A DNA stretch of 64,000 nt from Takakia lepidozioides (Eukaryota; Plantae; Bryophyta): the NCBI GenBank assembly GCA_030704615.1, contig CM060731.1, positions 86,986,001-87,050,000 on the forward strand, given 5' to 3'. This document shows, in pieces, positions 825-57,485 of this stretch. How positions within the stretch are numbered: position 1 is the first letter of the stretch; every line of letters begins with the position of its first letter. The translations under genes and the position numbers were made by a program. Below the pieces are notes generated by a model. The model was not told the origin of the DNA and did not search any database. It worked only from the letters and a program-made list of their open reading frames with translations.

Positions 825-1265
825 TTTCCCTTCAACATGGATGAAAAGTCTTAGAGGCAAAATGAAAGCTGGCTTTTCATCCATCCAATTGGATGACCAG
901 TTGGCGCGAGTTGTCATTTCATCCATCCAGCTCCTCCAGGCGAATTTCAGGATTTTTCATCCATCCAAGGAGTAGAAATTCAAATAATCGACCCCCATGA
1001 GTGCCGTCGACTCAATAATTTGGCGCCGCTGCTAATCAGCTCCATAAATCACCAAACTTGGTGACAAACTACCCTGGTTATCAGCGTCACGTCCGTCAGT
1101 CAAAGTCAAATCACATCAGACCTGACGCTAACGGGACCTCCGTCACGTCAGGTTCCGGGAATATTCTAGTAAAACACATACCAGGTAAAATATTGCCACT
1201 TAAGCAGCCACATCGCTGACACGGTGGCCGTGGCAAATACATTTTGAAAAATACTAAAATGAAAG

Positions 1266-2273
1266 TGACCGCCAATTCTGGCGGTCGCTTTATATTTCGG
1301 AATTTTAGAAATAAGAGCGACCGCCAACATGGCGTTCGCTTACATTTTTTATTAAAAAAACAAAATTGTCGGTCGCATTGGCGGTCGTCTAATTTAAAAA
1401 GAAAAATAGCGACCTCCATATTGGCGGTCGCATAATTTTGAGAATATATAAAAAAACAAACGACTGCCAGAATTGGCGGTCGCTTAATTTCAATAACATA
1501 TAAAAAGCAAGCGACCACCATAATATGGCGATCGCTTTATCTTACAAATATGTAAAAAAAACCAGCGACCGCCATAATATGGCGGTCGCTATATTTTAAA
1601 TATATTTAAAAAACCCAGTGACCGCTATAATATGGCAGTCGCTTTATTTTAAATATATATATATATATACATAACCCGTGACCGCCATAATATGGTGGTG
1701 GCTTTAATTCAATTTTTTTTTTAATAAAAATGACTGCCATAATATGGCGGTTGCTTTATTTTAAAAATATTTAAAAAAACCAGTGACCGCCATAATATGG
1801 TAGTCGTTTTTATTCAAAAATTTAAAAATAAAACAGCGACTGCCATAATATGCCGGTCGCTTTATTTTAAAAATATTTTTAATTTCAAAAAATGCAGCGA
1901 CCGCCAGTAATGGCGGTCACATTTATTTTTTATTTTTAAAAAATAGAACGACCGCCATAATTGGTGGTCGCTTGTATATTTTTAATTTCTGAAAATGCAG
2001 TGACCACCAGTAATGGCGGTCGCTTTTATTTTTTATTTTTTAAAATAGAGCGACCGCCATTATTGGCGGTCACTTTTTAATAAAAAAAAAAAATAGACCG
2101 ACGGCCATTACTGGCGGTCGCTTGTATATTTTTAATTTCTGAAAATGATGCGACCGCCAGTAATGACCGTCGCTTTTATTTTTCATTTTTTTAAATAGAG
2201 CGACCGCCGTTTTGGCGGTCGCTTTTATTATTTAAGTTTTTAAATAGAGCGACTGCCATTACTGGCAGTCGTT
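1266..2273. repeat. Array of about 20 palindromic units GCGACCGCCA-N3-5-TGGCGGTCGC separated by AT-rich spacers (period about 50 bp)
   Basis: Units read directly, e.g. gcgaccgccataatatggcggtcgc at 1565-1589. Resembles DNA-transposon subterminal repeats. Confidence 0.85.
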
Positions 2274-2585
2274 ATTTTGTTTTTTTTTTAAATGTAGTTG
2301 ATGACATAAATATACACAGTGCAACACTCCACTATAGGATATTTGTCTGGGCATTGTGGAACTATAGGAAAGAGCTTTTAAGCACAAAGTTTTGGGTTGA
2401 TACCAAGTCAAATGGTCACAGAGAGGGAAAGTGAGGGGTACAGACATCACAAAAGAGTACACATTTGGCTTTTTGCAAAACAAGGGGATCTATTCAGAGG
2501 GCATTGAGGGAGTCAAGTGTCACTGCTGTTGCAGTGCCAACAAAACCCAGCTCGCTAACAAAGTACCGTTCATGGTTTAGCTATC

Positions 2586-2775
2586 TGTCGTGCGCATACA
2601 TATCGCTACACAACTACATCGCTGTCCAAAACCACACAACACATGTGCACACCACACACTAGTATACCACTAGTCTACCACTAGTCCAGCCACTAGTCCA
2701 ACCACTAGGCTACAACTAGTCAGTCACTAGGCTGCCACTACGCTGCCCACTATGGCAGTCGCTAGTCCACACAAT
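2586..2775 (-). repeat. Element 1 repeat B2 (terminal, carries the CA end)
   Basis: Direct repeat of 3104-3292, differing by one indel. Confidence 0.95.
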
Positions 2776-3101
2776 GATAAAGAAGAAGAATACAAGCACA
2801 AGCTCATGCGAGCTCACAAAGCTGAAGCATAAACTCATGCATATATAACCTCATCACTCAAATACAAGTCAAGCCAAGTGCACCCCACGCCATGGGGAAT
2901 CCACACTACGGCGCCATAGCTAGGCGCGGTGAGGCTCAACTCGAGAAAGATGAGCCTCCCGCGCTTGCCGTGAAGATAACCACTCCAGGGCCTAAATCTG
3001 CCTTGACCCCTGGATTGACACTTGGGCCAATCCCAAATGTCAATATGTAAAAGCTAGCTATTTCCTAGCTAGTTTCACACTAGTGGTAAAATAACTTGAC
3101 A
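2775..3101 (-). repeat. Element 1 repeat A2
   Basis: 327-bp direct repeat of 14156-14482 with no differences seen by eye. Confidence 0.95.
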
Positions 3102-3103
3102 GT

Positions 3104-3292
3104 TGTCGTGCGCATACATATCGCTACACAACTACATCGCTGTCCAAAACCACAAACACATGTGCACACCACACACTAGTATACCACTAGTCTACCACTA
3201 GTCCAGCCACTAGTCCAACCACTAGGCTACAACTAGTCAGTCACTAGGCTGCCACTACGCTGCCCACTATGGCAGTCGCTAGTCCACACAAT
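3104..3292 (-). repeat. Element 1 repeat B1 (follows the PPT, separated from A2 by 2 nt)
   Basis: The minus strand reads PPT-B1...CGACA-AC-TGTCA(A2). Confidence 0.95.
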
Positions 3293-3304
3293 CGCCCCCC
3301 TAGC
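3293..3304 (-). promoter_or_regulatory. Polypurine tract of element 1
   Basis: Minus strand GCTAGGGGGGCG immediately before B1. Confidence 0.7.
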
Positions 3305-3550
3305 TGGTGCTTAGGTCCCTCTAAGTCCAGGTAGCCACAAGATGTGATAGTGACCATAGCCTCACTAAGTCCTCCACCACTATCCCTACTACACTCAAAC
3401 TCGATAGATCAAGAGGCCGGGTGCAAGAGTTGCCCCATCGTTAGTCGCCGTCTTGCAACCTGTGAACTTGAGCTTGGGATCTCATGTATTGACTCCTATG
3501 AGCTTGGCCTCCCATGTCTTGTTAGCTGCCTCCAGTCATGTCCACTGCCA

Positions 3551-6500
3551 CTATCCCAAGCAGTGTGGACACAACCAATCTCCGTCAGGCACCTTCTCAA
3601 GAGGTGGTGTCAAGCATCCCATATGCCAACCCCTTGAGCACCGATCACACACCAGCATGGTGGCTGCCCCTTTGGCAGACCCACAGAGCATGCACCTCAA
3701 ACCTGCAGGTACCACTGCCAAGTTTGGGTCAACTCTGCCATCGACATTGGGAAGGTGACATGGCGCACAATTACGCACATGGTCTTTCCAAGTCATGCCA
3801 TCCCGACCCTCTAAGATCAGGACCCCTGAGGGCAACACCTCTCGAACCCTCAGAATAACACGCCCTGCAGTAACATCCAGAGTCGTAGGAGCAGTCTGCT
3901 GCAAATAAACATAGTCACCAGGGCTAAACCTCCGAACCCCAGGACGATATCCTCCACCACGTATAGTGGCATACCTCAACATATCACGGTGATGTGCAAT
4001 GGCAAGGTTCTCAAAAGCCATGGGCATGACTTTCTTGAACAACTCTGCACGCTGATCACATGCACGTACCCACACGTCCGGATCGTCAAGGTTAAGGACT
4101 TGAGCAGTGTCCCTACGAATGGCTGCAGGCAAATCCGGCTCTCGGCCAAAGAGAAGGAAATATGGTGAGAAGGAGGCAAGTGATGCTTGTTTGCTGAACC
4201 TGTAGCCCATGGCTAACCAAGGAACCTGAAGATCCCAATCTCCTAGGTGTCCCTTCTGCAAGCCATACTTGCGCAAACCCCTCTTCACCGTCTGAACAAC
4301 TCTCTCTGCTAAGCCATCGGCCTCAGGATGATCCCGAGAAGTGGTGCGGTGGTCTATCAAGGCTTTATCACACAAAGCCTGAAACTCCCCCAAGAACTCT
4401 CTCCCTTGGTCCGTGAGTACCTCAGCTGGAGCACCAAATCGGCTAAGCACACGATCCAAGAATGCATACGCAGCCCCCTCACTAGCCTTGTCAGGCAATG
4501 GAACCAACTCAATCCACTTGGAGAAGTGCTCCACCATCACCAACACATATCTGTGGTGGCGCATAGTCAGTGGCAACGGTCCTGCGAAGTCAAGACTCCA
4601 CCTGTAGCCCAATCCCATGATAGGTAAAGGATGCAACTGTGGTGTAGGGGCGTTGAATGAAGCACGCACCCTGTCACACACCATGCACCTAGCCACAAAC
4701 TGTTGCACCTCTGTATGCATACCACGCCACCAATACTGCCCCTGCAGTAAACTGTGAGTGCGTCGCACTCCAAAATGCCCCAACTCCTCATGGGCATGCC
4801 GCACTAACCGTGCACGCTGTGTGGGGTGAGGCACAATCCTCACCCGACCATCCTCCCACACTCGAAGTAGGTGTATCCCCTCCCACTTGAACCTCTTGGC
4901 TCGTTGCAGGATCCGATCCCTCTCCCTGGCAGTCACAATGGCTGCCGTGTCTCCCGTGCGGAGGTAGTCCAACACAGCCGAATCCTCATGTATATCTCTG
5001 GCACCACCTAGCTCATCACTAGCCTCAGGGTCCTCAGACACTCCGTCTACAGTCATCCCTGTTGTAGGTCCAATCTGACCTCCCGATGCCAAGATACACA
5101 AAAATGCAGATGCGTGCCATCCCGGCACCATCTCCTCGTCCGTCTCACCATGCCACCGAGCTCCAGTGTCATCCTGCTGGCTCATGCATGGATTGCGACT
5201 CAATCCATCCGCATCCCGATTGACCAAACCCGGTCGATGCACAACCTGAAAGTCATACTCCTGGAGTATAAGTGCCCACCGTGCAAGCTTCCCTGTAAGC
5301 TTGTCTGACTCCATCAACCACTTGAGTGGCTGGTGATCCGTGACAAGGGTGAAAAGATTGCCGTATAGATAGCACCTGAAGTGTGCCACGGCCCACACTG
5401 CAGCTAAGCACTCTCCCTCATATGAGCTGTACTTAGCCTCTGCAGCGTTGTTCGAGCGGCTAGCGTAAGCCACTACGAACTCTCTTCCCTCATCATCCAC
5501 CTGTGTGAGCACCGCTCCAAGCCCCAGCATGCTCCAATCCGTATGCAGCTGAAAGGGACGCCCCCTGATAGGTCGTCTCAAGATAGGCGCCGAGGTCAAC
5601 CTCGCCTTGAGCTCTTGAAAAGCTCGTTCCTGCTCATCTTCCCACTGCCACTCCTGGTCCACCTTGGTCAGCTTGGTTAGAGCCTTTGCAATGGTACTAA
5701 ATCCCTTGACAAACCGTCTATAATAGTTTGCCAACCCCATGAAAGCTCGAACTCGGCTCACATCCGTGGGGCGTGGAATTTGTGCAATGGCCTCTACCTT
5801 AGTCTGCTGTACCCCCAATCCTCCAGGATATATCATGTGACCCAGATACTCAATCTGGTTGTGGAAAAACTTGCACTTCCCCGGATGCAACTTCAATCCG
5901 TGCGCTCTCAAGCGCTCCAATACCACCTGAAGGTGTCTCTCATGCTCCTCCATCGTAACACTAAAGATGATGATGTCATCTATGTAGCACCGAGCAAAGT
6001 CCACCCCTGCTAGAATCCTATCCATGACTCTCTGAAACTCTGCAGGAGCATTCTTAAGCCCAAATGGTAAGAACCGCCACTGATATAGGCAATCCTTGCC
6101 GTGCTCATTGATCCCCCAGAATGCCGTCTTCTGCTTGTCCGCCTCCTTGATTGGCAACTGGTGATATCCGGATCGTAAATCCAAAGTGCTAAAGGCCTTA
6201 GCATGCCCGATGGCATCAAAGATCTCCTCTGGTGTTGGCATGGCATACTTATCGGACTTGGTCTGACGATTTACAGGCCGGTAATCACCGCACATACGTC
6301 TCTCCGTCCAATTGCCATAGACATCCTTCTTGGCTGGCATCACTGTGGCTGAAGCATACTCTCCACCAGAGAGCTCCACCAAACCTGCCTCCCAGAGATC
6401 TTGAGTCCTCATCTGAATCAAAGACCTCTCCATGTCACTGTATCTATAGGGTCTCCGAAAGATTGGCGTGTCAGTGGCCAACTCAATACGGATCTCTTGA

Positions 6501-6685
6501 CCCTTCAGTGCTCCCAAGTCCTTCAAACTGAAGGCAAAGCAATTCCTGTAAGCCCTCAGGAACCGCCGTATACGTCGTCTCTCTCCTCCGGTGACAATGG
6601 GTCCAATGTCAGGCTCCCAATTGTCCTCCGTAACTACAACCTTAAGTCCAGTGGGCTTAGAGGTAGAGGACGCGTCCCGTGGTTG
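3551..6685 (-). CDS. pol: Pol: reverse transcriptase, RNase H, integrase with C-terminal PHD finger
   Basis: RT motifs LDLRSGYHQ, PFGLKNAP, YIDD. RH motifs TDWS, YASR, TDHQPL. IN HHCC plus D-D-E (LDFAGP, TDQG, GLAER). PHD CMLC...CDRC..WH..C...WLCPHC. The frame is open from just after the TAG at 6686-6688; the ORF track calls 3551-6526. Confidence 0.95.
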   Translation of the reverse strand, partial: QPRDASSTSKPTGLKVVVTEDNWEPDIGPIVTGGERRRIRRFLRAYRNCFAFSLKDLGALKGQEIRIELATDTPIFRRPYRYSDMERSLIQMRTQDLWEAGLVELSGGEYASATVMPAKKDVYGNWTERRMCGDYRPVNRQTKSDKYAMPTPEEIFDAIGHAKAFSTLDLRSGYHQLPIKEADKQKTAFWGINEHGKDCLYQWRFLPFGLKNAPAEFQRVMDRILAGVDFARCYIDDIIIFSVTMEEHERHLQVVLERLRAHGLKLHPGKCKFFHNQIEYLGHMIYPGGLGVQQTKVEAIAQIPRPTDVSRVRAFMGLANYYRRFVKGFSTIAKALTKLTKVDQEWQWEDEQERAFQELKARLTSAPILRRPIRGRPFQLHTDWSMLGLGAVLTQVDDEGREFVVAYASRSNNAAEAKYSSYEGECLAAVWAVAHFRCYLYGNLFTLVTDHQPLKWLMESDKLTGKLARWALILQEYDFQVVHRPGLVNRDADGLSRNPCMSQQDDTGARWHGETDEEMVPGWHASAFLCILASGGQIGPTTGMTVDGVSEDPEASDELGGARDIHEDSAVLDYLRTGDTAAIVTARERDRILQRAKRFKWEGIHLLRVWEDGRVRIVPHPTQRARLVRHAHEELGHFGVRRTHSLLQGQYWWRGMHTEVQQFVARCMVCDRVRASFNAPTPQLHPLPIMGLGYRWSLDFAGPLPLTMRHHRYVLVMVEHFSKWIELVPLPDKASEGAAYAFLDRVLSRFGAPAEVLTDQGREFLGEFQALCDKALIDHRTTSRDHPEADGLAERVVQTVKRGLRKYGLQKGHLGDWDLQVPWLAMGYRFSKQASLASFSPYFLLFGREPDLPAAIRRDTAQVLNLDDPDVWVRACDQRAELFKKVMPMAFENLAIAHHRDMLRYATIRGGGYRPGVRRFSPGDYVYLQQTAPTTLDVTAGRVILRVREVLPSGVLILEGRDGMTWKDHVRNCAPCHLPNVDGRVDPNLAVVPAGLRCMLCGSAKGAATMLVCDRCSRGWHMGCLTPPLEKVPDGDWLCPHCLG

Positions 6686-6905
6686 CTATGCTGCAACCTC
6701 TTGAGCAGTACTCCCTACCTGCTCAGTCAATGACAAGGCATCATCCTGCCCCATCATCTCATCCTTGAGGACCTCCTCAACCGAGAAGAATCCCCAACCT
6801 CATCCATCACAGCCGCCTTGGCTGCCAACTCCCTCTGAACCTCGAGCACCTCCCACGTGTGCCATGGATGCATGCACCCCGTGGTCCTCATATGCTCGCC
6901 CCCAC

Positions 6906-9900
6906 TCACTGCCTGTACCGTCTCGGTAGGCAGAGAGACCATTGAGGGAAGTGTATTCCGCACTCTGCGTTGCTCAGCAGAGCCAAGCTGATAATCCAGG
7001 TCAAGCAATTGAGATCCATTGCTTGCCCCAACACTTGACGACGTGATGCCTCAGAAAGAGACGACACCGCCGTGGTACCAGTGGTAAAACCCATTGCCCG
7101 CTCACGCTCGTCAGCATTAGGCTCCACTAACTGCTGCAACTGAGCATCCCACAGGAGGCCAGGTCCACTATCCCGGAAAGCATGCGATCCTGGGAAGCTG
7201 AGCAGTGTAGGTAATGCTGCTCGTGGTTGACCCACCTTGTTGACCACTGCCAAAGGCGAACGGTCATCGTGTCTCACACGTTGAGACTGCCTCCCTGTGT
7301 CCAGAATGTTATCCACTGTGAGATGTGCTGGCCGCTGCACCCCATCAAATGCACGCTTGAGCAGTGCGGGTGGCATCATGTTAGTCCACCATAGCCGTGG
7401 ACGATGAGCCCGTGACCCCACTGTAGCTGCATCTAGCAACACTGCTGACCCAAGCCACGACCGGACTTGATGCACACTGGCCATCACCCTGGCCCGAGAA
7501 TCGCCCATCAGTGGCACATTCTCCAAGATGTATGCTGGAGATACAGCTTGATGAAGCTGCAAGTGGCGCAAAACCCGCACCATCTCCCAAAACAGACCCG
7601 ACCTCGAGTCTCGCAATCCATTGCCATGCCCGGCTGATGAATGCCCTTGGCAGGGCCAACCTGCCACTACCAGATCAATGGAGCCAACCCGCTCCAAATC
7701 CTGCGCCCCCAGCAACGAAATGTCTGCTGGCAAGGCCTGCTGATATCCACGAATTGCAGACACCGACAACAACTCAGGGTACCGCTGCACCAACTGAGCA
7801 ACATGGCGAAGTGAAACGCGTCGTGCAGTCTCATCCCTCTCCACATACAGGTAACGCCGAACTCGTACACCTGCCTGTAACACAGCAGCCAATCCGGTGC
7901 TGATCCCGCCAAACAAGTCCAGAAGACAAATGCCTTCATCCGGAGACTGCCACACAATAGGTGTGGTGTCCAATGGAGACAATTGAGGTGGTCCTGGTGC
8001 AATCCCCACACTCTCCTCCTCTCCTGACGGTACAAAAGCCTCCACCCAGGCTTGTTGCACCCGTCGATCAGCATCCCGCTGCAAATCCTTGCTCGTGCCC
8101 CACAATGGAGTCTGAGCAACCATGGTAGGCAACTCCGCCATACCATACATGTCATCCTGCTCTCCCGGAGGTGGTACATCCTCTGAATGAGCATTGCCCT
8201 CAAGCAACTCTCTAGGCCAACTCACTGCCGCTGTGAATGCTGCTAGTGTCGGCATCTTGCCTCGCTGGGCAACCGCAACTCCTCCTATGAACGTCACAGG
8301 GAGCTGCACACGCCGGCCCTCCCCTGACTGCCATGCAGGCCTATAGGAAGCTGACTCCTCCCAAAAATCCAGGGTGAAGCCCATGGGGTACAACACTGCC
8401 CCACCAACCAGGACATCGTATGAGACTGCGTCTGTCACAATGGCCTTGGCTCGCATCACTGAGCCATCTGTAGGGTGATCCGGCCGTAGTCTGATAGCCA
8501 ACTCACGCCGTGTCATGCCCCGAGCCTGCTCCGATCCTCCCAGAGACGTCTGTATCTGGAAAGGACAAGGCTCCATATCCGCCTCCGTGAGGCCCAAGCC
8601 TGCAATAGCAGCTCTGCCCAGCATCAATGGCTGAGCTCCCGAGTCCAACAAGACTCGCAGTGGCCGGTACCTCTTGCCTGCCGGTCCACTCAAACAGAAA
8701 ATGCCATCCTGGTTGTCTAACATGACAACTCCAGGTGTCACCATGGCGCGCTCAATGGCTGGCCTAGCTGGCAGCTCCATCAACCTGGCAGCTGCAGCTT
8801 GCCATGGCGCCGCCGTGGCAGTCTTGACCCTCAAATCCGAGGATCCCTCCGGCACTACACCTCCCACTATCTCCGCAGAAGATGAAGTAACCTCCCCACT
8901 CTCACAGAGTGTAGCTGCCAGCCTGAACACCTCAGCTGGTCTTACCCCCGGCGTCGCAATCATGGTAGCCGAGAACAATGGAGCCTGGCACACAGATGTG
9001 GCCGCTCCTAGCAGCACACTAGCTGCCGTAGCCTTGGCAACACTAGGTAGTGGTGCTACCCGTGTAGCTCTCCCCAATGGCATAGTAACCTCCGCCTCGG
9101 TAACAGTCGGGCGAGAACTAGGTGCCATGGATGGCGTCGACACTGTCTCCGCCAATGTGAATGACTGAGGAAGCCTAGCCTGACGGCTTGCCTCCCCACG
9201 CTGTGGATCCAACTCCACCTCTGCACCTCGTGGCTCAGGAACTCGTGCTGCTCCTCGAGTCACGGCTGCAGCAGACTCCACCTGCACTAGTGGTAGTGCT
9301 GCTCCACACATGAATCCCATGCCTCCCATATCTCCTCCCTCAGGAGCAGGAGGTGGACCATCCGGCCTTAGAGCCGGTACCACCTGAGCTGTAGCCATGG
9401 CAGCGAGCCTCTGCTCTAGCTGCTGAAGCCGGTTGGCCATGCCTTGGTCAACACCCTGACCTCCGCGTCCTTGGCCACGTTGAGCTTGCCCTTGGCCTGC
9501 ACCTCGTGGCTGGCCACCTCGTCCCCTCTGGGCTGCTCCACCTCGCCCCCGGCCACCATTGTTCCCTTGGAACTGGCCTGGGCGCAACTCAGGATGCAAA
9601 CCATAACACTGAGCCTCTCCATGCCCGTGTTTGCCACAATGCCCACACTGTAACTGTGCAGGCTGTGCATGTGCCGGCCCTTTGCCTCCCTCTGGACAAT
9701 CCTTCTTGACATGGGGTCCTCCACATGTCCAGCACACCACATCCGCCCGTTGTTGGCCAGCAAATGAAGGGAGAGACCCCTGCATCTGAGGTCCTCTCTG
9801 CCCTTCCCTGAGCTTCACCTGAGCCCCCTTGTTGCCTTGAGCACGTTGAGGTAGTGGTTGGCTAGGAGCACCACTACCCCGTGGTGTCTCCTTAGCAAAT

Positions 9901-10826
9901 CCCACCATGACCACTCGTTCCTCCACCATGTTGAGCTCTATCCGCTCTGCCAGCAAAAACACATTTGCTAAGGTGGGTTGGGCCGCTTGTAGGAGAGTTG
10001 CATCCCGCACCCTTCTCCTCAGCTCCTTGTCCAATATCCCATACCAGAATTGGACTGCCTGAGCTTCCGTAACCCCTTGGGTTACATTTATCAAGCGCCT
10101 CATGCGAGTGAAAGCCTCCCTCAAGCTCTCGGTCGGCTTCCGTTGGAACTCTTGCAAGCTCCGCAACTTCTCTGTCCTCACCCCTTGGTAGTTCCCTCTC
10201 AACTCTTCGAAGAACTCCACAACAGGGTTGAAGGCAGGCACGGGTGCTAGTGCTGGTGCGGTAGTGGCTTGGGTGGACGTCGTAGCTACTGTACCACCAG
10301 TCCCACTGCTGCTTGCTGAAGCTGCCGGTGCAGCGGCAGGTGTAGCCACTGCCCTCGTGGCTCTAGTGCCCCTAGTGATGGAGACATAGTCGGGTGACCA
10401 GTACATCCTCCACTCCTCGATCTCAACCTCATGCCCCCGCCTGAACTCATGGTAATCATCCATAGGCGGCCCCTCAAGGTGCTGAAACAGCCCCTTCCAT
10501 GCCATGAAAGGCGTAAATAGTTGTGGATTGCGCATTTGCTGCAAATCACACCAACTATCAAACTCTTGGATAAAATCATCCAACTCGATGGTGCCCACCG
10601 CCCCAGAGTACCTTCGTGGCCCCTTGGTAGCTCCATACATCTCCTCCATTGTGTCCCACAACAATGGCAAAGAAACAACTTGCACCGCCGGTATGAGTCC
10701 TCCTGATTCACAATCCGAATCAGAACCTTCTGTAAGACACAGGAGGTGAAGGTGGCCTAAACCGCACACCTCGTCTCGTGTACCCACTAGTATCGCTAGT
10801 GCTCGAACCGGCACTATCCCCAGCAA
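6906..10826 (-). CDS. gag: Gag (two CCHC knuckles), aspartic protease and DNA cytosine-5 methyltransferase in one polyprotein
   Basis: CWTCGGPHVKKDC and CGHCGKHGHGEAQC, protease LLDSGA, MTase motifs LFGG, GWPCQ, ENV, RPR, ERERAMGF, LGQAMD (about 6990-7940). Likely ATG at 10649. Confidence 0.93.
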   Translation of the reverse strand: MLGIVPVRALAILVGTRDEVCGLGHLHLLCLTEGSDSDCESGGLIPAVQVVSLPLLWDTMEEMYGATKGPRRYSGAVGTIELDDFIQEFDSWCDLQQMRNPQLFTPFMAWKGLFQHLEGPPMDDYHEFRRGHEVEIEEWRMYWSPDYVSITRGTRATRAVATPAAAPAASASSSGTGGTVATTSTQATTAPALAPVPAFNPVVEFFEELRGNYQGVRTEKLRSLQEFQRKPTESLREAFTRMRRLINVTQGVTEAQAVQFWYGILDKELRRRVRDATLLQAAQPTLANVFLLAERIELNMVEERVVMVGFAKETPRGSGAPSQPLPQRAQGNKGAQVKLREGQRGPQMQGSLPSFAGQQRADVVCWTCGGPHVKKDCPEGGKGPAHAQPAQLQCGHCGKHGHGEAQCYGLHPELRPGQFQGNNGGRGRGGAAQRGRGGQPRGAGQGQAQRGQGRGGQGVDQGMANRLQQLEQRLAAMATAQVVPALRPDGPPPAPEGGDMGGMGFMCGAALPLVQVESAAAVTRGAARVPEPRGAEVELDPQRGEASRQARLPQSFTLAETVSTPSMAPSSRPTVTEAEVTMPLGRATRVAPLPSVAKATAASVLLGAATSVCQAPLFSATMIATPGVRPAEVFRLAATLCESGEVTSSSAEIVGGVVPEGSSDLRVKTATAAPWQAAAARLMELPARPAIERAMVTPGVVMLDNQDGIFCLSGPAGKRYRPLRVLLDSGAQPLMLGRAAIAGLGLTEADMEPCPFQIQTSLGGSEQARGMTRRELAIRLRPDHPTDGSVMRAKAIVTDAVSYDVLVGGAVLYPMGFTLDFWEESASYRPAWQSGEGRRVQLPVTFIGGVAVAQRGKMPTLAAFTAAVSWPRELLEGNAHSEDVPPPGEQDDMYGMAELPTMVAQTPLWGTSKDLQRDADRRVQQAWVEAFVPSGEEESVGIAPGPPQLSPLDTTPIVWQSPDEGICLLDLFGGISTGLAAVLQAGVRVRRYLYVERDETARRVSLRHVAQLVQRYPELLSVSAIRGYQQALPADISLLGAQDLERVGSIDLVVAGWPCQGHSSAGHGNGLRDSRSGLFWEMVRVLRHLQLHQAVSPAYILENVPLMGDSRARVMASVHQVRSWLGSAVLLDAATVGSRAHRPRLWWTNMMPPALLKRAFDGVQRPAHLTVDNILDTGRQSQRVRHDDRSPLAVVNKVGQPRAALPTLLSFPGSHAFRDSGPGLLWDAQLQQLVEPNADERERAMGFTTGTTAVSSLSEASRRQVLGQAMDLNCLTWIISLALLSNAECGIHFPQWSLCLPRRYRQ

Positions 10827-11589
10827 CTAGTGGCACCTCCGTGTTGACACTCAACCGGTCATGAACATGTCCCTAACCCCCTCTCCACAAGGTAACCGGG
10901 TAGAGAACCTGTTGCGGCTTATGGTTTGGAATACTAAGTTCCTAACATAGCCTACACCTGTACCTGCATCCACCGCAAGCACTCCTATGGTTGGCTGGTC
11001 ATCACCTCCAACCTCACCACAGGAGAAACAATGATGGTCTGGCTGGTCATCACCCCAGCCTCACCATCGACAGCATGCTCTAGGACTGGCCGGTGATCAA
11101 ATCCGGACCAATCACCTATAAAAACAAGCGCCCACACAAAACTAGCATGGCGCACAGTCAAGCATGCAGGTATGGAGGGGATCCAAACACAAGAAATCAG
11201 AACGACAACTCCCCCACACCAAAAACAACTCCACGGTGTTGCTCCTGCAAGGACACCCCAGCCCAAACTCGGACTGACTCTTGCCTCCACCTACGGAAAG
11301 GTCTTGGCCTAATGAGAGGGTGGAAACTACGAGGAAGAGAAGCTAAAGCAATGCCTAACCCAGCATGCCCTCATCCCAACACTCTTCCTCTCCTCTCTTC
11401 CCTCACTTGCATGACCATGGGAATATCATGAAGATACTCCTCAAACCGCCCTCCACGAGCTTCAAAATTCGGCCTTCCATACCACATGCCAGTCCTTAGG
11501 CAGTCCACCAGTGCCTCCACGAGTCAGCACAGGCCGTCCACAGGTCAACACGGGCCACCACAGACCAGCACAGGCCCACACAGCTCACT

Positions 11590-12620
11590 GGTCACAGCCG
11601 TCACAGTCCCACAGGCCACTGGGCACAGCCTGTCACAGCCCCTCACAGCTCGTCACAGCCTCAAAGGCCTCAGGCACAGCCTGTCACAGCCCGTCACAGC
11701 CCCAAAGGCCTCAGGCGCGGCCTGTCACAGCCCCTCACAGCCCGTCACAGCCCCAAAGGCCATGGGCACGGCCTGTCACAGCCCCTCACAGCCCGTCACA
11801 GCCTCAAAGGCCTCAGGCACGGCCTGTCACAGCCCCTCACAGCCCGTCACAGCCCCAAAGGCCATGGGCACGGCCTGTCACAGCCCCTCACAGCACGTCA
11901 CAGCCTCAAAGGCCTCGGGCACGGCCTGTCACAGCCCCTCACAGCCGCAAAGGCCTCAGGCACGGCCTATCACAGCCCAAAGGCCATGGGCACAGCCTGT
12001 CACAGCCCGTCACAGCCCCACAGGCCTCAGGGCACAGCCTGTCACAGCCCCGCACAGCCCCACAGGGCACAGGGCATAGCCTGTCACAGCCCATCACAGC
12101 CCATCACAGCCTCAAAGGCCTCAGGCACGGCCTGTCACAGCCCCTCACAGCCCATCACAGCCCCAAAGGCCATGGGCACAGCCTGTCACAGCCCGTCACA
12201 GCCCCACAGGCCTCAGGGCACAGCCTGTCACAGCCTGACACAGCCCGTCACAGCCCCACAGGGCACAGGGCACAGCCTATCACAGCCCATCACAGCCTGT
12301 CACAGCTTGCCACAGCCTGTCACAGCCCGTCACAGCCCGTCACAGCCGCAAAGGCCTCAGGCACGGCCTGTCACAGCCCCTCACAGCCCATCACAGCCCC
12401 AAAGGCCATGGGCACAGCCTGTTACAGCCCGTCACAGCCCCACAGGCCTCAGGGCACAGCCTGTCACAGCCCCGCACAGCCCGTCACAGCCCCAAAGGCC
12501 ACTGGGCACAGCCTGTCACAGCCTGACACAGCCCGTCACAGCCCCACAGGGCACAGGGCACAGCCTATCACAGCCCATCACAGCCTGTCACAACTTGCCA
12601 CAGCCCGTCACAGCCCCACA
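11590..12620. repeat. GTCACAGCC-based minisatellite in the leader of element 1
   Basis: Dozens of 10-11 nt (G/A)TCACAGCC(C/T) units arranged in higher-order blocks. Confidence 0.9.
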
Positions 12621-14139
12621 CATGGCCGCTCTGGCAGTTTAGCCATTTCTCCAAGGGGTTTAGCCACGCCAAGCTAGGGTTTGTGTCTCTTGGACTCTAG
12701 GCTTCTTTCCACCGAGCTATGGTGGCTGTGAGGAAATCAGCAAGGTATCCTTGCTCTTTCGGCTCCCACACACCACCATAGTAGCTCTAAGCCATGAGGT
12801 GGTTGCCACAAACCAAGCCTTCTTTCTCACTTAGCCTCCCCAAACACGCCACTAAACTCAATGGCAAACAACCAAGCCCTGCTGGTTCCCAGCCCTTGTG
12901 AGCACTCATTCAAGCACTCTCATTGGCCATAACATCTGTCTTAGAGCCTATTCCAGCCCTCTACACCTGTTGCTTCAAGAGTTGCGCTCCCTTCAAGCTT
13001 GAAGTTGAAACCCCAACTCACATAGGCCCTACAAGTGCTTTTCTTTCACTCCAAGTGGAAACCAGCCCTAGACCTTCCGTTCTAGCTCTCTAAGGCTTGA
13101 AAACAAGAGCCTCAATGGGCTGAAGGCATGCTCCACACATGCCCCACTCTCACCATAAGAGAATCAGCTCCTTTGCTTCATTTCTTGCATCCACAAACCT
13201 GAAAATACAAGCTTCAGCAGGCTGAAAGCATGCTCTACATGCCCTACAGGGAAACCAGCCCCTTCCTTCCTTCCTTGCACTCCCACACCTAAAAGTGCAA
13301 GCCTTCACCAGGCTGACAGCATGCTCCACACATACATTGCCCTCACATAAGGGAAGTCAGCCCTTCCCTCTTCCTTGCTTGCCCTCCAAGCTTGAAGATG
13401 GAAGCTTCAATGAGCTGAATACATGCTCCACACATGCAACCTCTTCACACAAGAGATATCAGCCCCTATCTTGGCTCCTTGGCTCCTTGATGCTCTCTAT
13501 GACAAAACTAAGCACTCCATAGCCTTTGCCAAGCTCCTGAAACCCTAAGGCTTACATTTCCAGCCACAAGACACTTCTCTTGTGGTGCAAGAACTCTTCT
13601 TCCAAGCTCTGAAACCCTAGGTGCACATTCCATGGCCTTGCCGCACCTCTTAGCTCCTGTTCCAGCCCTGCTCTTGCCATGACAAGAGCCCTCTCAATGC
13701 TGAAGCTCGAGATTGAAACCCAATCTCACCATACTCCACAAAGTGCACTGATTTGCCCCAAGCAAAATCAGCCCTTTCGCTTGGTCTTGCAATCCTTCAC
13801 ACAATGAAAGCTCGCATTCCCAAGTCCAGTTCTCAGCTTTGCCACCAAAGCCACTATAACCTGCTCTTGACTGGTCCTCTTCCCAATCGTGCTTGCTCGC
13901 TCATGCATGTACACAATCTGAAACCATCAAGGTGCTCTGAAATTACCTGCAGCATGGTGCTTTCATCTCTGAAGCTGAAGATCGAATGCCAAGGTCTACC
14001 ACCTCGTAACCCACATCGCCTCCGCTTCTAACAACCAAGAGCTCCATGGTGCTCCTTGCATAACAACTTGGTTTCTCTCAATCTCAAGCAAAAACCACAA
14101 GTGCTACAACTAACTCGTATCTAGCACTCATAGATACGA

Positions 14140-14156
14140 GCTGATCTTTCTCGAGT
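14140..14156 (-). promoter_or_regulatory. Putative self-priming primer-binding site
   Basis: No TGG follows A1. 14144-14156 is the exact reverse complement of LTR 14320-14332 (16/17 when extended). Confidence 0.65.
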
Positions 14157-14482
14157 GATAAAGAAGAAGAATACAAGCACAAGCTCATGCGAGCTCACAA
14201 AGCTGAAGCATAAACTCATGCATATATAACCTCATCACTCAAATACAAGTCAAGCCAAGTGCACCCCACGCCATGGGGAATCCACACTACGGCGCCATAG
14301 CTAGGCGCGGTGAGGCTCAACTCGAGAAAGATGAGCCTCCCGCGCTTGCCGTGAAGATAACCACTCCAGGGCCTAAATCTGCCTTGACCCCTGGATTGAC
14401 ACTTGGGCCAATCCCAAATGTCAATATGTAAAAGCTAGCTATTTCCTAGCTAGTTTCACACTAGTGGTAAAATAACTTGACA
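14156..14482 (-). repeat. Element 1 repeat A1 (5' terminal, TG start, lacks the B segment)
   Basis: Matches 2775-3101. Confidence 0.95.
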
Positions 14483-16129
14483 TATCCTTAAAACGATTAC
14501 TTCGTAATCGTTTCTGAAAGCATACCGTCGGACAACCTCTGTTGCATGTCTTAGGAAATGGGCAGTAGTGTTAATAGCCTATTTTGTCTAAGTCATAAAC
14601 CAGCGGTTAACAGTATGCCCTCCATGCAGAATATTGAGCTTATGTGGTGAGTCTTCACCAAAGCTGAAGTCGTGAAGTCTTGTTTTGGGGGTTGTAAAGA
14701 TTGTGGATATGAGTTTGCAGCATAATACTTCTCCCAATCTGTTTTTTTTTTTTTTTTTGTCGCACGCCGGGTGTATCAAACTCCTGCAATTGTTCTTGAT
14801 CAGATACTGCCTCTTGGTCTTGCAGGCTTGTCAACTCCATTGTGTATTGATCCCAAGGCTCCTCTTCAAATGAGCACTCATCAAAGGATCCCTCCTCTGT
14901 TCAATCTAGCTCTATGGTGAGTGACTGATTTTTTTTTTTTTTTGTGAGTTAGTCAGAGCTCGGTGAAACCAGTCATCATGCACATTCTGCCCTTCTTTGA
15001 TACTTGCTCCATGACATAGTATATGCGGGGTTCCTGCCAATTCTTCACCATAGCAGCCACCTTGACAGATCTTGCCTTCTACACTAGGCTCTTCTTCTTC
15101 ATCCATTGGCATTGTGTCCAAGCAGTTAATGGTCACCGCTTCACTGCATACCACCTTTGTTGTTATCTCAGTGACATATGTTGAACATTTCCCATCCTCA
15201 TCCATTGGGGATTGCAGCTCCCCATGCTGATTATGTGCGTGTGGCCTGCCTCCCTGCAGCACACTCAACTGTTCCTCTAGCAACTCAGAAAATATAAGCC
15301 CCTTCTTGCTTCTCCTTTTTGTTCTACTGTACATCCTTCCCTTGCTGGTGACATTAGTGATCCCTTCATGGAATGTGACGTTGTCAGGCTGATCCCAGCC
15401 TGGCAAATTCCATGCTTCCTGAGTAACCTCATTGCCTTGATTTGCCTTGTGATGTGCAGTGACTTCCCTCACAACGTCACTGTTTTGGCTCACTGCCTCC
15501 CTTGTGCGTGCACACTTCTCCCCTTGCTCAAGTTCCAGCACTTCCAAGCTGAGCTCCCTTGGCAATCCTTGCTGTGCAGTTACGTATCTCACCTGTGCTT
15601 CTTTTTGTGATTGAGCCTGTAACTCACAACTTTTGATTGGAAAATACACCCTCCAGAGTATGCCTCCTTTGTGATGTAGCCATTTGACAGCCTTTCCCCA
15701 ACCTTTGATCAATGCAAATGTGGCTCTTACTGTTCTCTCAATGATCCTGTGAGATCTCTCATTGGTAGCTATGGTCATACAAATTTTTCTTTAATCCATA
15801 TGACCAGCACTAAGATGCAAATCAGAGCCCTCACTGTACTATGAAGTACCCATGCTCTCCATGGTTGTTTTTCTCTCACTGTGATATGGCTTTGATCCCG
15901 TACTACATGACCTAGGCTCTTTTTTTTTGCTCTCAGCAGTGATTGGGCTCTGGCCCGACCTTTCATGTTGTGTTCTTTTTTTTTTGCCCTCACCAGTGGC
16001 TACCTGCCCTGTATCCATTGTAATCTCACTTTCCCTCTTGTCAACCTCAATCTGATTGACCCCTAGAAAAAGCTGGAATCTGACTTTGTGCTTGGACGTC
16101 CCTTCCCTCAGATCGGATAAAGCCATATC

Positions 16130-18765
16130 CCTGCAGGCTGCTTAATCCTATTGATTAAGCCCAATCTACAGTCTCTTTAGCATAAAAGATCTTAGTCGAA
16201 AGGACTGAAGCCTCTTGGTTCATACAAACAGATGGTAGTCAAGAGAAAACAAGAACTATTATGAGATGATACACATTCTCACCATCTCACGTTCTCTCAT
16301 AATGCACATTCTCTCCATCTCACATTCACTCAACACAGAGATACTTCGAATAGCATGGCTTTACTTCAAAGCTCGTCACATCATCACAGAAGTACACACT
16401 GATCCCTGATACTCATACTGCACACTCTCTAAGTTGCGTGTAGTCTTTTTATACTATGCTCGAAAGAGCCGTTACAGTCTGTGGTCGTTAATGACCGTTT
16501 GCCTAACTGCCTACGCAACCTAAAAGGTTTGCTAAAAAGTGGCTCGTTGCAGTGGTCGTGAGCCATAGTGGTAAACGGTCCACTACTCCCTCTATTGGTT
16601 AAAGCCGATGCTAATGTGACCGTGTGATATCGTGGTTCACGGCTCACGGTTACTACACTACTCACTACTGCTCTCGTGGTAATGTACCCTTGTACCGCGT
16701 ACTTAGCCATCTCTGCCTATGGCTCAGGTAGTGTACGTCCATCACTACCCGGTATGTCCCGTTGTGACCCTCATTGTCTGTCCCTCGTAGTATAGCCGTT
16801 ATCATTTATTCCCCCCCCTCTTTTGAAATTGTGTCCGCACAATTTTGTCAGTTCCTGTACTTGCTGTATCTCTTGGGGATGTAAGGTGGTGGCATGTCTG
16901 TCTGCGAGGTAGGAAGTGTGTCCCAGGATTGTCGTGGTGGCAGCTTCTTGTTCCTGTTATCGTCACTGTCTGGTTGCTCCTCTGGTTCGTGAGTAGGCCA
17001 ACTTTCTTCATCAGGGTGTTCTGCTATCCCGTCCCCACGTACCATATCGATTTTGTTGGTCAAGGTTTTGCGGTAGGTTTGCAGCTCTTCCTTGGTCCAG
17101 GGTATAATGTGTTTTGTTGCCCTGCTACCCATTAACCAGTTAACAGCTTGGACCCCTGTTTCTCTGAAAGGGTGGTCTCTGTCCAATACCAATGGTGAAA
17201 AGTGGTCCTTCGCCTGGCGCCATGCTTCAGCATATAGTGGCCTATTCATATATATTGAAGTGCCTGTGACTCTCTCTGGTGGCTGGAATTTGGGTAATTC
17301 CCAGTGAGTATCTTTTTCAATACTCTCATGGCGCTGCCAGCTTCCCCTCATTGTCACGAACATGCGGTACAAGTAACTGCCAATATAAAAACTTGGGCAT
17401 CCCATCACAATGGTTACTGCCGGGGTAGGATTAATCTTCAATTGCCCCATTGCCCACATGTAAGCTACCAACTCCTTGTATTCCAGGGGAGCCTGGCGCC
17501 AGAATTCAACCAATTCTGCCCCTGACCATGTATCATTCTTAGCCAGTGGCCTCATCCTATATCTCAAAGGAATAAGAGTTTGATTGAGTAGATGCAATTG
17601 ACCCAATGATTTGCAAGGAGTTAAGGTTTTGAAAACCTTCTCCAGTATTTCTGGGATTTGGTGGGCTGGTACTACCATCATTTTAAAGTATTCCTCTGAA
17701 TACTTTAACCACTCCCCATCCTGCTTGCATGGCATGATTTGGAAATCATCCACTGCTACTGAAGTTAATGCTACCAGGACACTTGGTAGTGTTACAGGGT
17801 TTACCTCTTGAGTAGATGGCCCTGTTGTGGCCTGTACCAGTGTCTGTTGGCTTGGTGGTGGTTGTATTGCTGGTGGTGTTTGTGTTGGTGTTGTTGTTGT
17901 TGATTGTATTGGTGTCTCTCGTTCGTGATCTTGCTTCTCTTGATCCTCTTCGTCCATGAGTTCCTCTTGTTCTAGAATTGGTGGCAGGAACTCCTCATGA
18001 ATGTCTGTCACCAATTTCACCAACTGGCACTTCATCTGCCTCACCATTGCCCTGTTGAGTTTCTTCATCTCCAATTCACTCCCTTCATTCAACCAAGCTC
18101 TGGGTAAGGGTGCGTCTGCTGCATCCAACCCTGCTTGCAGTGTCAGCTTCACCAGTTGCTGCTTCCATTCTTGTTCATTGCCCATGACAATGTCTCTTTC
18201 TGTGGTGGCGGTAAACAGCCTGCTCTCAACATTCTCCCTTTGCTTCAGCAGTGTAGTGTTGCTATTGAGCCACTTGGTTCCCTGATCTCTGGGAGTCCTC
18301 AGCTGCCCCTTGAGTGTCTCCACCTGCTGCTTTAATGTTTGCACCTGTCCTGTGAGTGTTTCCACCTCTGTCTCTGTTTTCCGAGATCTCTCTCGCTCTG
18401 CATCGACGTCGGCTTGGACATGGCGTGTTTCGTCTCTCTGTCTTTCCCACTTTTGCTCCCACTCATCTCTGCATTGTGCCAACGTGTTGTATTGGCGGAG
18501 TAAGGTTGACTTTTGATCTTCTAATGCTGCAATTGTAACCTCATGGTTACAAACTGTTCTTGCAGTGGCCAATTCCCTCTGGTGCTTCTCTTTGATGTGG
18601 TCTAAGATCATGTTCAGGTTTTCCGGGCTGATGTAATCCTTGGCCCTGTCCATACAAACTGTCAGTTGCCCCAATGCTTGTATTTCCTGCAGAATAACAT
18701 TTTGTGGTGCTTCCTCCAACCCTGTGTCCCATGCTGTTGTATCTAGAACTTGTTGTGCTAGTAGT
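16130..18765 (-). mobile_element. 3' part of an LTR retrotransposon: extra ORF, PPT (16811-16824) and LTR starting TG near 16804
   Basis: Minus-strand AAAAGAGGGGGGGG lies just after the ORF. The ORF is homologous to the extra ORF of element 3. The LTR far end is not resolved. Confidence 0.55.
16848..18719 (-). CDS. Extra retrotransposon ORF: coiled coil, T/P-rich linker, conserved C-terminal domain of unknown function (5'-truncated)
   Basis: 623-aa open frame. The motif FWRQAPLEYKEL...IVMGC...HWEL is shared with 38430-39071. Confidence 0.7.
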   Translation of the reverse strand: MEEAPQNVILQEIQALGQLTVCMDRAKDYISPENLNMILDHIKEKHQRELATARTVCNHEVTIAALEDQKSTLLRQYNTLAQCRDEWEQKWERQRDETRHVQADVDAERERSRKTETEVETLTGQVQTLKQQVETLKGQLRTPRDQGTKWLNSNTTLLKQRENVESRLFTATTERDIVMGNEQEWKQQLVKLTLQAGLDAADAPLPRAWLNEGSELEMKKLNRAMVRQMKCQLVKLVTDIHEEFLPPILEQEELMDEEDQEKQDHERETPIQSTTTTPTQTPPAIQPPPSQQTLVQATTGPSTQEVNPVTLPSVLVALTSVAVDDFQIMPCKQDGEWLKYSEEYFKMMVVPAHQIPEILEKVFKTLTPCKSLGQLHLLNQTLIPLRYRMRPLAKNDTWSGAELVEFWRQAPLEYKELVAYMWAMGQLKINPTPAVTIVMGCPSFYIGSYLYRMFVTMRGSWQRHESIEKDTHWELPKFQPPERVTGTSIYMNRPLYAEAWRQAKDHFSPLVLDRDHPFRETGVQAVNWLMGSRATKHIIPWTKEELQTYRKTLTNKIDMVRGDGIAEHPDEESWPTHEPEEQPDSDDNRNKKLPPRQSWDTLPTSQTDMPPPYIPKRYSKYRN

Positions 18766-25976: not shown

Positions 25977-25988
25977 TGGTATCAGAGC
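25977..25988 (+). promoter_or_regulatory. PBS complementary to initiator tRNA-Met
   Basis: TGGTATCAGAGC. Confidence 0.9.
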
Positions 25989-26023
25989 AGATGTTAAATC
26001 TTGATTTCTACTAGCTAGGGATC

Positions 26024-26356: not shown

Positions 26357-26427
26357 GGGAGTTGCAGGAAAATTAGAGTCAGAATTAGGTGTTGAAACAG
26401 TTTGAACTTTGACTAGAGAGTAGAAGG

Positions 26428-30938: not shown

Positions 30939-30948
30939 AAAAGGGAGA

Positions 30949-35122: not shown

Positions 35123-35146
35123 GAACACGGGTGTTCGCACAATTAT

Positions 35147-54366: not shown

Positions 54367-54374
54367 TGGTGGAG
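54367..54374 (+). promoter_or_regulatory. PBS, probably tRNA-Ala
   Basis: TGGTGGAG directly after A1, complementary to a ...CUCCACCA tRNA end. Confidence 0.6.
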
Positions 54375-57464: not shown

Positions 57465-57485
57465 GATGCAAGTAAGAAGAGGGTC

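Follow-up and report, generated by a model that had tools for sequence, protein, structure and literature searches.

A KnitGypsy-Dnmt3-type Gypsy element of Takakia lepidozioides with a DNMT3-like domain before a predicted readthrough stop and a repeat layout suggestive of an end-joined integration precursor

Introduction

The closest described system is KnitGypsy-Dnmt3 of Klebsormidium nitens (de Mendoza et al. 2018, PMC5890265), for which the accessible part of that report describes Gypsy domains, a DDE integrase, an unrearranged Dnmt3-type methyltransferase (MTase) located in the ORF of RT, DIRS-like A-coding-B-A-B repeats and purifying selection. Within that part, no mechanism is proposed for the repeats and self-priming is not mentioned. 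In a published yeast test the KnitGypsy-Dnmt3 MTase gave no methylation, a result judged inconclusive by its authors. SymbioDIRS-Dnmt3 also carries a Dnmt3 domain, which is published to methylate CG in yeast. The A-coding-B-A-B layout itself is common to the DIRS/PAT/Ngaro group of tyrosine-recombinase retrotransposons.

Tf1/Sushi and Tcn1 chromoviruses have ordinary LTRs. They combine a Gypsy pol with a self-priming primer binding site (PBS) complementary to the repeat, and Tcn1 is present in mosses and club-mosses (REXdb; PMC6317226, sections consulted). With respect to circular DNA, 2-LTR circles were long regarded as dead ends (PMC4372172); the cited portions of PMC1180852 and PMC4372172 state that foamy virus integrase cleaves LTR-LTR circle junctions and that HIV-1 2-LTR circles can feed integration.

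According to a 2019 opinion, land plants 'such as tracheophytes' lack methylase-encoding transposons (PMC6338049), and the available text of a 2026 preprint refers to 'streptophytes (Gypsy-DNMT3)' (10.64898/2026.05.21.726589). Here an element of this kind is described from a 64-kb stretch of the T. lepidozioides genome (the window).

Results

Element architecture

The features of the element are collected in Table 1. The near-identical repeats claimed in the original prediction were recovered (A1 and A2 identical at 327 of 327 bases, B1 and B2 a single indel apart), and the claim of a young insertion was likewise borne out. The A2-B2 joint corresponds to the end of A that precedes the PBS, joined to the first bases after the polypurine tract (PPT). 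One target duplication, 4 bp in length, encloses the sequence from A1 to B2, and an apparent empty site was seen in 15 contigs of public run X2, which join sequence resembling the other flank directly at 14483-14486. Chance nesting of two elements was rejected, since the single duplication spans A1-B2 and the A-B-A-B-type layout recurs in L024, L028 and L032. This permuted layout is unusual but not new, DIRS-like repeats having already been given for KnitGypsy-Dnmt3 in the accessible part of PMC5890265.

Table 1. Coordinates of the element and its components within the window
Feature	Position	Strand	Remarks
Whole element, 11,897 bp	2586..14482	-	Layout A1-internal-B1-A2-B2; ends TG...CA
Target-site duplication beside A1	14483..14486	.	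TATC on +
Target-site duplication beside B2	2582..2585	.	TATC on +
Repeat A1, 327 bp	14156..14482	-	Putative transcript start and self-primer at ~14332-14321
Predicted self-priming PBS	14144..14155	-	Abuts A1; perfect 12-nt complement of 14332-14321
Tandem repeat array	11592..12616	.	10- and 51-bp periods; in long leader
ORF1	6906..10826	-	Gag, zinc knuckles (9734, 9647), aspartic protease (motif 8651), C5-MTase; premature end in window copy
DNMT3-like cytosine methyltransferase domain	6978..7955	-	Motifs I-X unpermuted; catalytic Cys present
Linker	6779..6978	-	Two one-base frame breaks (~6977, ~6780) in window copy
Amber codon and CARYYA hexamer	6680..6688	-	TAG CAA CCA; predicted readthrough site; MTase/RT boundary
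pol	3551..6685	-	RT, RNase H, H2C2-DDE integrase, C-terminal PHD finger; 1044 codons open
PPT	3292..3301	-	Immediately 5' of B1
Repeat B1, 188 bp	3104..3291	-	Terminus ...CGACA
Two-base spacer of internal CA-nn-TG junction	3102..3103	-	B end facing A start; predicted integrase cleavage site
Repeat A2	2775..3101	-	Same sequence as A1
Repeat B2, 189 bp	2586..2774	-	

Pfam profiles detected no tyrosine recombinase in ORF1, pol or eight other element frames, while rve and H2C2 were present. With its DDE integrase and 4-bp target duplication the element thus differs from DIRS/PAT/Ngaro. No Chromo domain was matched after the integrase, where a PHD finger is found instead; the chromodomains belong to Tf1/Sushi and Tcn1 (PMC6317226, same sections), whereas the PHD finger, the MTase and the split repeats are the element's own. 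The open frames of the leader tandem array gave no Pfam match, and no tRNA genes were found within the 64-kb window.

The domain order PR-MT-RT-RH-INT is shared with K. nitens KFL_009030040, and the two MTases are 45% identical. The proposed link to the Klebsormidium element was upheld by this order and identity and by the common repeat layout (PMC5890265, accessible part). An RT tree grouped the window element with RTs of Klebsormidium and Closterium in a single clade (SH-aLRT 93-96, 42 of 153 sequences; 0.98 in another tree), with weak deep nodes and with the MTase-bearing K. nitens protein not as sister.

A DNMT3-like domain

The C5-MTase motifs of the original prediction were confirmed on the minus strand as I (DLFGG, 7919-7905), IV (GWPCQ, 7661-7647), VI (ILENV, 7529-7515), VIII (AHRPRLWW, 7409-7386), IX (ERERAMGF, 7109-7086) and X (LGQAMD, 7031-7014), all six in linear order and sharing a reading frame with the protease motif LLDSGA. 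The proposed HMM search returned DNA_methylase at 48-50 bits, the cut-off being 22. DNMT3A/3B were the closest PDB matches by both sequence and fold, in agreement with the predicted DNMT3-like assignment: by sequence they ranked above DRM2 and HhaI, and by fold above HhaI. In a second comparison of the Foldseek matches, the structure model (pLDDT 96.7) gave Z 29.4 with rmsd 2.6 over 274 residues for DNMT3A/3B, and Z 24.5 for HhaI. Fold and motif order are thus those of the animal catalytic domains, at 22-25% identity, but no PWWP or ADD domain was detectable in the element MTase, and the target-recognition region aligns so poorly to DNMT3A/DNMT3B that sequence preference is unreadable from the alignment. 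A DRM-type origin was rejected, as the motifs are unpermuted.

An alignment of 215 sequences, reaching down to ~35% identity with the window domain, showed the catalytic Cys and the motif VI Glu in 100%, and both motif VIII Arg residues in 98%, of the residues aligned at those columns. The suggested dN/dS check indicated purifying selection between families (0.12-0.19 in four unsaturated pairs; five further pairs were saturated). For Sphagnum-type copies the values were 0.35-0.71 for the MTase and 0.51-0.69 for RT, and many of these copies have stops in the MTase, a pattern which, judged from the sequences, is one of decay after insertion. The MTase domain tree took in TE-type domains only. 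Based on motifs and modelled fold, the domain is assigned as a DNMT3-like cytosine methyltransferase with predicted activity.

The 'intact' MTase of the original prediction is intact in its motifs, but the ORF1 frame is broken twice after motif X, the first break lying in the helix that follows this motif. Because of these breaks, ORF1 of the window copy stops early at 6906, short of the amber codon. At both breaks, sister sequences from public runs have one additional base, and the breaks are either mutations or assembly errors.

An amber codon between MTase and RT

The MTase had been described as in frame before RT. This did not hold: RT sits in a second ORF behind an in-frame TAG at 6688-6686, which separates it from the MTase. 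The excerpts available for PMC4132726 and PMC2194720 provide two points of comparison. The amber codon and CARYYA hexamer of TMV-type UAG-CARYYA readthrough are also present in the element, and stop-separated ORFs occur in Tca2, SIRE1 and MuLV, although the stop of the element lies behind protease and MTase rather than immediately behind gag or ahead of env. The same excerpts indicate for Tca2 that an in-frame stop need not be read through via a local signal.

Of 30 loci in which an MTase is followed by RT, 22 carry a stop and CARYY(A/C) that share the frame of RT and lie 55-62 codons upstream of its core, the pattern having been widened from CARYYA after the results had been inspected; the background is 0.02 per such interval. 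The strict CARYYA was present in seven of the 22. In fifteen of the contexts the hexamer is CAACCC, which departs from the consensus at one base, and in five of these the stop is TAA. The 22 loci represent about four lineages and are not independent cases. No CARYYA was found at the first in-frame stop upstream of RT among the RH-MT-INT and single-ORF loci listed, L040 being left out.

Among 40 of the 41 variant rows listed for four runs, none of at least 3% fell within the nine bases of amber codon and hexamer, while positions 6678, 6691 and 6692 vary. A random nonsense mutation was rejected as the origin of the amber codon, since it is fixed among sister copies and holds a conserved position. 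Marchantia ORF1 proteins terminate ~80 residues beyond the MTase. From its conserved context, the amber codon is very probably read through by a minority of ribosomes. KnitGypsy-Dnmt3 has its MTase reported in the ORF of RT (PMC5890265, accessible part), whereas in the window lineage the conserved readthrough-type codon splits Gag-PR-MTase from RT; because of this in-frame codon, the element is a variant of the KnitGypsy-Dnmt3 kind and not the same family.

Putative self-priming sites and junctions

Self-priming complements of 12 nt in the window element, 16 nt in L024, 9 nt in L006 and 15 nt in L018 were matched in length by 0, 0, 6 and 0 of 2000 shuffles, respectively. The complements have different sequences in three families. 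L028 has a complement of only 6 nt (220 of 2000 shuffles) and no target duplication that was clean by eye. PBS pairing appeared only when the RNA was folded from the predicted transcript start; when all of A was folded together with the PBS, local hairpins formed instead.

The internal CA-nn-TG junction has the same form in L006, L018, L021 and L024 and is one base off in L028. Duplications of 4 bp flank A-start and B-end in the window element and L024 (both A-int-B-A-B) and in L017 and L039 (both A-int-B). The A-B joint differs by one base in L024, by about two extra bases in L028 and by a 9-base PBS remnant in L020. A-int-B copies can also come from genomic B-B recombination.

Relatives

Close relatives of the element were found in the liverworts Marchantia, Riccia and Calypogeia and in Sphagnum, in line with the predicted range extension to land plants. 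No tracheophyte carrier was present among the named MTase matches. In Marchantia polymorpha several full-length Gag-PR-MTase genes were present, examples of full-length ORF1 being Mp_Vg00370, Mp_5g06330 and Mp_4g09160, and several Marchantia gene models annotated as 'hypothetical protein' correspond to ORF1 of this element kind. A single-protein scan of viral contigs gave no relative; 17 weak phage-like MTases from an alignment scan were not used.

Discussion

On balance we narrowly favour the reading that this is a Gypsy element of the KnitGypsy-Dnmt3 kind whose Gag-PR protein has a C-terminal DNMT3-like domain, which likely methylates newly made DNA of the element itself in the particle, and whose integration likely proceeds from a circle with joined ends that is opened at the internal junction. 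The RNA would start inside A1, and its first ~12 bases, which pair with the site after A1, would prime reverse transcription. At the conserved amber context most ribosomes would stop, yielding Gag-PR-MTase, and a minority would continue into RT-RH-IN-PHD. As the readthrough-type stop follows the MTase, the enzyme would likely be made at Gag abundance and could be released by the protease; the same placement is an argument for its packaging in the particle.

With the PBS after A and the PPT before B, LTR-type copying would produce linear DNA with the repeat B+A at both ends, whereas the inserted ends are A-start and B-end. This mismatch suggests that the integrase cuts the internal CA-nn-TG of end-joined, likely circular cDNA; cleavage inside the B+A block, with the A-B joint made by DNA end joining, is considered probable. 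With similar confidence, a two-repeat circle opened at this site would give A-int-B-A-B and a one-repeat circle A-int-B, and both forms were found. It is rather more tentative, at somewhat below even chance, that the MTase marks the cDNA or circle before insertion. The PHD finger has a putative role, likely in steering target choice.

The same structures could arise by copying of the PAT/TOC1 type, known from the DIRS literature, in which RNA would extend from A1 into B2, with the internal B1-A2 junction as the template on which the ends are rebuilt into a circle; the A2-B2 joint would be inherited rather than remade each cycle, with a DDE integrase in place of the tyrosine recombinase. A-coding-B-A-B is a DIRS-type layout, and such copying, which likewise requires cleavage at the B|A junction, accounts for the retention of B2. 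It is nevertheless judged unlikely, because the self-priming PBS abuts A and the PPT abuts B exactly, the two predicted cDNA ends together reproduce the A-B joint, and this joint varies slightly between copies (L024, L028 and L020; few cases). Sequence cannot separate a circle from an end-joined linear dimer or longer tandem cDNA cut at its internal junctions, for which the inserted product would be identical, and L036 contains a tandem duplication of element sequence (99.9% identical; possibly an assembly artefact). Joining both ends of one molecule is simpler, and the A-int-B copies fit one-repeat circles, so that the dimer route seems improbable and end-joined circles are preferred.

As to the enzyme, it might instead act in trans or at its target, methylating host chromatin, the insertion site or other element copies and thereby adjusting silencing or copy number, an option with some appeal given the high predicted MTase dose upstream of the stop and an integrase PHD finger that points to chromatin reading; such options were listed in the 2018 discussion (PMC5890265, accessible part). 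The element also shows no extra CpG loss: its observed/expected CpG is 0.47-0.52, compared with 0.18-0.33 in three MTase-less Gypsy neighbours, and CpG depletion did not distinguish MTase-bearing elements, leaving no footprint of extra CpG self-methylation. Against this, the MTase always lies within the polyprotein, which favours a role on cDNA, and in a sister lineage it lies between RNase H and integrase, with 72 of 146 new proteins having it there or directly before the integrase. Action away from the element's own cDNA is accordingly rated as rather unlikely. A neutral passenger or non-catalytic DNA-binding scaffold, which would fit the inactivity of the algal relative in yeast and the many broken copies, is hard to reconcile with the invariant catalytic Cys and Glu across the 215 sequences, the purifying selection and the maintenance of the MTase at two different polyprotein positions, and is regarded as very improbable.

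The element kind and its repeat layout were already known from Klebsormidium (KnitGypsy-Dnmt3, 2018; PMC5890265, accessible part). New are the bryophyte relatives, the readthrough-type stop, and the self-priming site and PPT with their mismatch between B+A and A-start/B-end. The literature covered, which did not extend to Repbase, theses or most subscription journals, yielded no account of this element family from bryophytes and none describing readthrough or a circle mechanism for it; bryophyte copies may already be in a tree of the 2026 preprint.

The bryophyte copies narrow the 2019 claim of absence, and the range of transposon-borne DNMT3 now reaches land plants. It has long been asked whether circular LTR-element DNA can normally serve as an integration precursor; the end structure of this element appears to require an end-joined precursor cut internally, from which defined oligonucleotide substrates follow. 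Tentatively, and with slightly less than even confidence, we propose a widespread green-lineage Gypsy clade, carried into land plants, whose DDE integrase would normally use end-joined circles, cutting them at an internal att junction. A copy able to transpose again would come from the two-repeat circle only, the one-repeat circle leaving a repeat-less A-int-B that LTR finders miss, and a Gag-level DNMT3-like enzyme, set by the amber readthrough switch, would methylate the cDNA or circle before landing. The ORF1 gene models matter for counting the DNA methyltransferases of Marchantia, a genetic model in which the function of a retrotransposon DNMT3 becomes testable.

Domain content and reading frames

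The Gypsy retrotransposon on the minus strand of the window contained two long open frames. ORF1 matched Gag weakly and carried a pair of zinc knuckles, a protease motif and, in unpermuted order, six C5-methyltransferase (MTase) motifs, in agreement with the linear succession of motifs I to X first noted; Pfam DNA_methylase scored 48 bits on it. The pol frame encoded RT, RNase H, an H2C2-DDE integrase and a PHD finger (Pfam); Gypsy elements with a PHD finger have been described from Chlamydomonas (10.1101/2022.06.16.496473). When PDB sequences were ranked against the MTase domain, DNMT3A was best, followed by DNMT3B/3C, DRM2 and HhaI. An AlphaFold2 model (68-sequence input) had a mean pLDDT of 96.7, and the Foldseek matches listed for it were exclusively DNMT3A/3B/3C. 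With VIA-align, Z was 29.4 against DNMT3A/3B (rmsd 2.6 over 274 residues) and 24.5 against HhaI, which upholds the DNMT3-like assignment.

Features of the window
Feature	Position	Strand	Description
Whole element	2586-14482	minus	A1-internal-B1-(2 bases)-A2-B2; TATC on both flanks
ORF1	10826-6906	minus	1306 residues, stop to stop
pol	6685-3551	minus	1044 residues
10-bp tandem repeats	11592-12616		element leader
Similar 10-bp repeats	~35137-35290		unrelated site, 23 kb away
Array	1240-2295		~50-53 bp AT-rich units, GC-rich hairpin core in each; like subterminal repeats of a DNA transposon
Young Gypsy-type element	24363-33275		within older RT-RNase H gene; two repeat blocks (760 bp at 99.6%, 856 bp at 98.7%), adjacent at left end, 700 bp apart at right
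Older Gypsy-type element	53848-62583		LTRs 84% alike; dUTPase domain (Pfam 37 bits) between protease-like region and RT
Long open frame	16848-18842	minus	664 residues; no Pfam match
Long open frame	14912-15790	minus	292 residues; no Pfam match

The original prediction of an intact element with the MTase in frame before RT did not hold for the window copy: RT lies in the second frame behind an in-frame TAG, and ORF1 is frame-broken. The tails of Marchantia homologues resumed in a different window frame directly past motif X, and in four public runs, from at most three samples, contigs had one extra base at ~6977 and at ~6780. Both were present in a single 2173-base contig of run X12, placing ORF1 and pol in one frame. 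The window copy is broken and the family unbroken; mutation or assembly error may account for the breaks. In run X1, 115,643 contigs matched the element, a depth that does not equal copy number. They covered the MTase as they did the remaining parts, so variant copies are numerous.

A stop codon between MTase and RT

The in-frame sequence TAG CAA CCA precedes pol. No variant at or above 3% fell in these nine bases among the 40/41 rows listed, while neighbouring bases were variable. Stop contexts were analysed in the window and the best 59 of 80 kept metagenome loci with relatives; in 30 loci, window included, the MTase end was followed by RT. A stop plus CARYY(A/C), a pattern broadened from CARYYA after first inspection of the contexts, stood in the RT frame 55-62 codons upstream of the RT core in 22 of the 30, representing about four lineages (background rate 0.02 per such interval). 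Strict TAG-CARYYA occurred in seven of the 22 and the CAACCC context in 15, all of Sphagnum type and five after TAA; L006, of this type, was 100% identical along 141 residues to a protein from Sphagnum fallax. The RT frame had no stop in the MTase-RT interval of L033 and L054-L056, and this interval was degraded in L017, L027, L028 and L032.

The stop is a feature of the family. CARYYA is the readthrough signal of tobacco mosaic virus (PMC4132726, PMC2194720), and the amber codon is predicted to be read through by ribosomes, which would leave the MTase at Gag abundance and RT-integrase scarce. In KnitGypsy-Dnmt3 of Klebsormidium nitens the domain reportedly shares an ORF with RT (PMC5890265); in the window lineage the stop separates the two.

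Repeats, priming and integration

The split end repeats were near-identical, as expected: A1 equalled A2 over 327 bases and the B copies differed by one indel. The 12 bases directly past A1 complement a mid-A site (reached in 0/2000 shuffles). Self-complements of different sequence followed A in L024 (16 nt), L018 (15 nt) and L006 (9 nt; 6/2000 shuffles); in L028 the complement was just 6 nt and not significant (220/2000). Tf1/Sushi elements are known to self-prime, and the same is predicted for Tcn1 (PMC6317226). A polypurine tract adjoins B1.

Four of the five distinct elements with both ends visible started with A, ended with B and had a 4-bp duplication: the window element and L024 as A-internal-B-A-B, L017 and L039 as A-internal-B. 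L028/L032 had the repeats, with a clean duplication absent by eye. Within the B+A block the two insertion ends face one another as CA-nn-TG; the A2-B2 joint corresponds to the two predicted cDNA ends joined together.

Standard LTR-type copying from the self-primer and polypurine tract would give DNA with B+A at either end; the cDNA ends would then join into a circle, and integrase would cleave its internal CA-nn-TG junction. This is the simplest reading of the sequences, since inserted copies run from A to B, CA-nn-TG lies inside B+A and A2-B2 corresponds to joined cDNA ends. Cleavage of circle junctions by integrase is documented for a foamy virus, and circles can feed HIV-1 integration (PMC1180852, PMC4372172). 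An identical inserted product would result from end-joined dimers as precursor or from a PAT-type template scheme, and A-internal-B copies can also arise by B-B recombination. At L020 (5538-5819), a short relic joins A to B through a 9-base primer-binding-site remnant and 7 bases, without the internal region; it is possibly a product of the circle junction.

Distribution and relatives

Searching with the MTase gave 59 proteins, from Marchantia polymorpha (61-76% in well-covered matches), Sphagnum fallax, Closterium, Chromochloris, Monoraphidium and unnamed sources. With pol as query, further matches came from Calypogeia fissa (77%), Riccia sorocarpa (79%), K. nitens, Tetraselmis and Tetrabaena, and an MTase fragment was also found in Calypogeia. 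The anticipated extension into land plants was supported by relatives bearing the MTase in M. polymorpha, S. fallax and Calypogeia; neither protein search returned an MTase-bearing protein from a named vascular plant. Of the window's sequence words, 70% were present in a plant-metagenome run, and with the affinities of the element a land-plant host is likely, probably a non-seed one.

A 50%-cluster library gave 266 matches at E < 1e-30. In the 146 new proteins whose domain order was read among the best 150, the MTase stood either between RNase H and integrase or immediately ahead of integrase in 72, between protease and RT in 15, and without any other domain in 59. K. nitens KFL_009030040 had the domain order of the window element. 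A tree of 215 MTase sequences placed the window in one clade with Marchantia and Sphagnum (support 1.0). In trees of RT-RNase H, built from 153 sequences of which 42 were re-run, it came out just outside a liverwort-plus-Sphagnum group (SH-aLRT 97 for both together with a single unnamed protein). The type whose MTase sits between RNase H and integrase formed a separate clade (99.6); deep nodes were weak. Loci of this sister lineage (L036, L037, L041, L044, L045) had open frames, and the four measured were strongly depleted in CpG (0.29-0.52) despite a G+C content of 52-60%. A pol protein of the window element's family, P0387 (cluster of P0227), carries the NCBI label uncultured cyanobacterium; it probably stems from plant DNA that was mis-binned in a metagenome.

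Selection and role of the MTase

Several Marchantia ORF1 proteins of ~1280 residues kept motifs I, IV, VI, IX and X and both motif VIII Arg; in one, His replaced the first of these. Among aligned residues of the 215 sequences, the catalytic Cys and motif VI Glu were invariant and the motif VIII Arg 98% conserved. The proposed dN/dS comparison was made on 15 pairs. Of nine between-family pairs, four gave 0.12-0.19, indicating purifying selection, and five had saturated dS. Four pairs among decayed Sphagnum-type copies gave 0.35-0.71, similar to RT; the remaining two were a near-identical pair and one without a full MTase. The conserved catalytic residues and low between-family dN/dS suggest that, as long as it is active, the element retains the domain for catalysis.

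The element's own cDNA or circle is a tentative candidate for the MTase target, at slightly below an even chance. It is favoured by the place of the MTase in the particle polyprotein. Against it, the element is not CpG-poorer than its MTase-less neighbours (0.47-0.52 versus 0.18-0.33), and the MTase of the algal KnitGypsy-Dnmt3 was without activity in yeast, an inconclusive result (PMC5890265).

Relation to published elements

KnitGypsy-Dnmt3, described by De Mendoza et al. 2018 (PMC5890265), unites Gypsy domains with a Dnmt3 domain and has DIRS-like repeats; MTase capture and the repeat layout are already published for an alga. The searched supplements of that paper do not mention Marchantia. 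Two further sources mention streptophyte elements, with bryophytes unnamed in the parts examined (PMC12344493; 10.64898/2026.05.21.726589), methylase-type transposons are said to be absent from land plants such as tracheophytes (PMC6338049), and the parts consulted of PMC11982613, PMC8616336 and PMC2864245 held nothing further on the family. Within the literature searched, no report was found of the bryophyte range, the amber readthrough position or end-joined-precursor integration for this family. The range, the predicted readthrough position and the evidence for an end-joined precursor thus appear to be new, and all three are testable in Marchantia.
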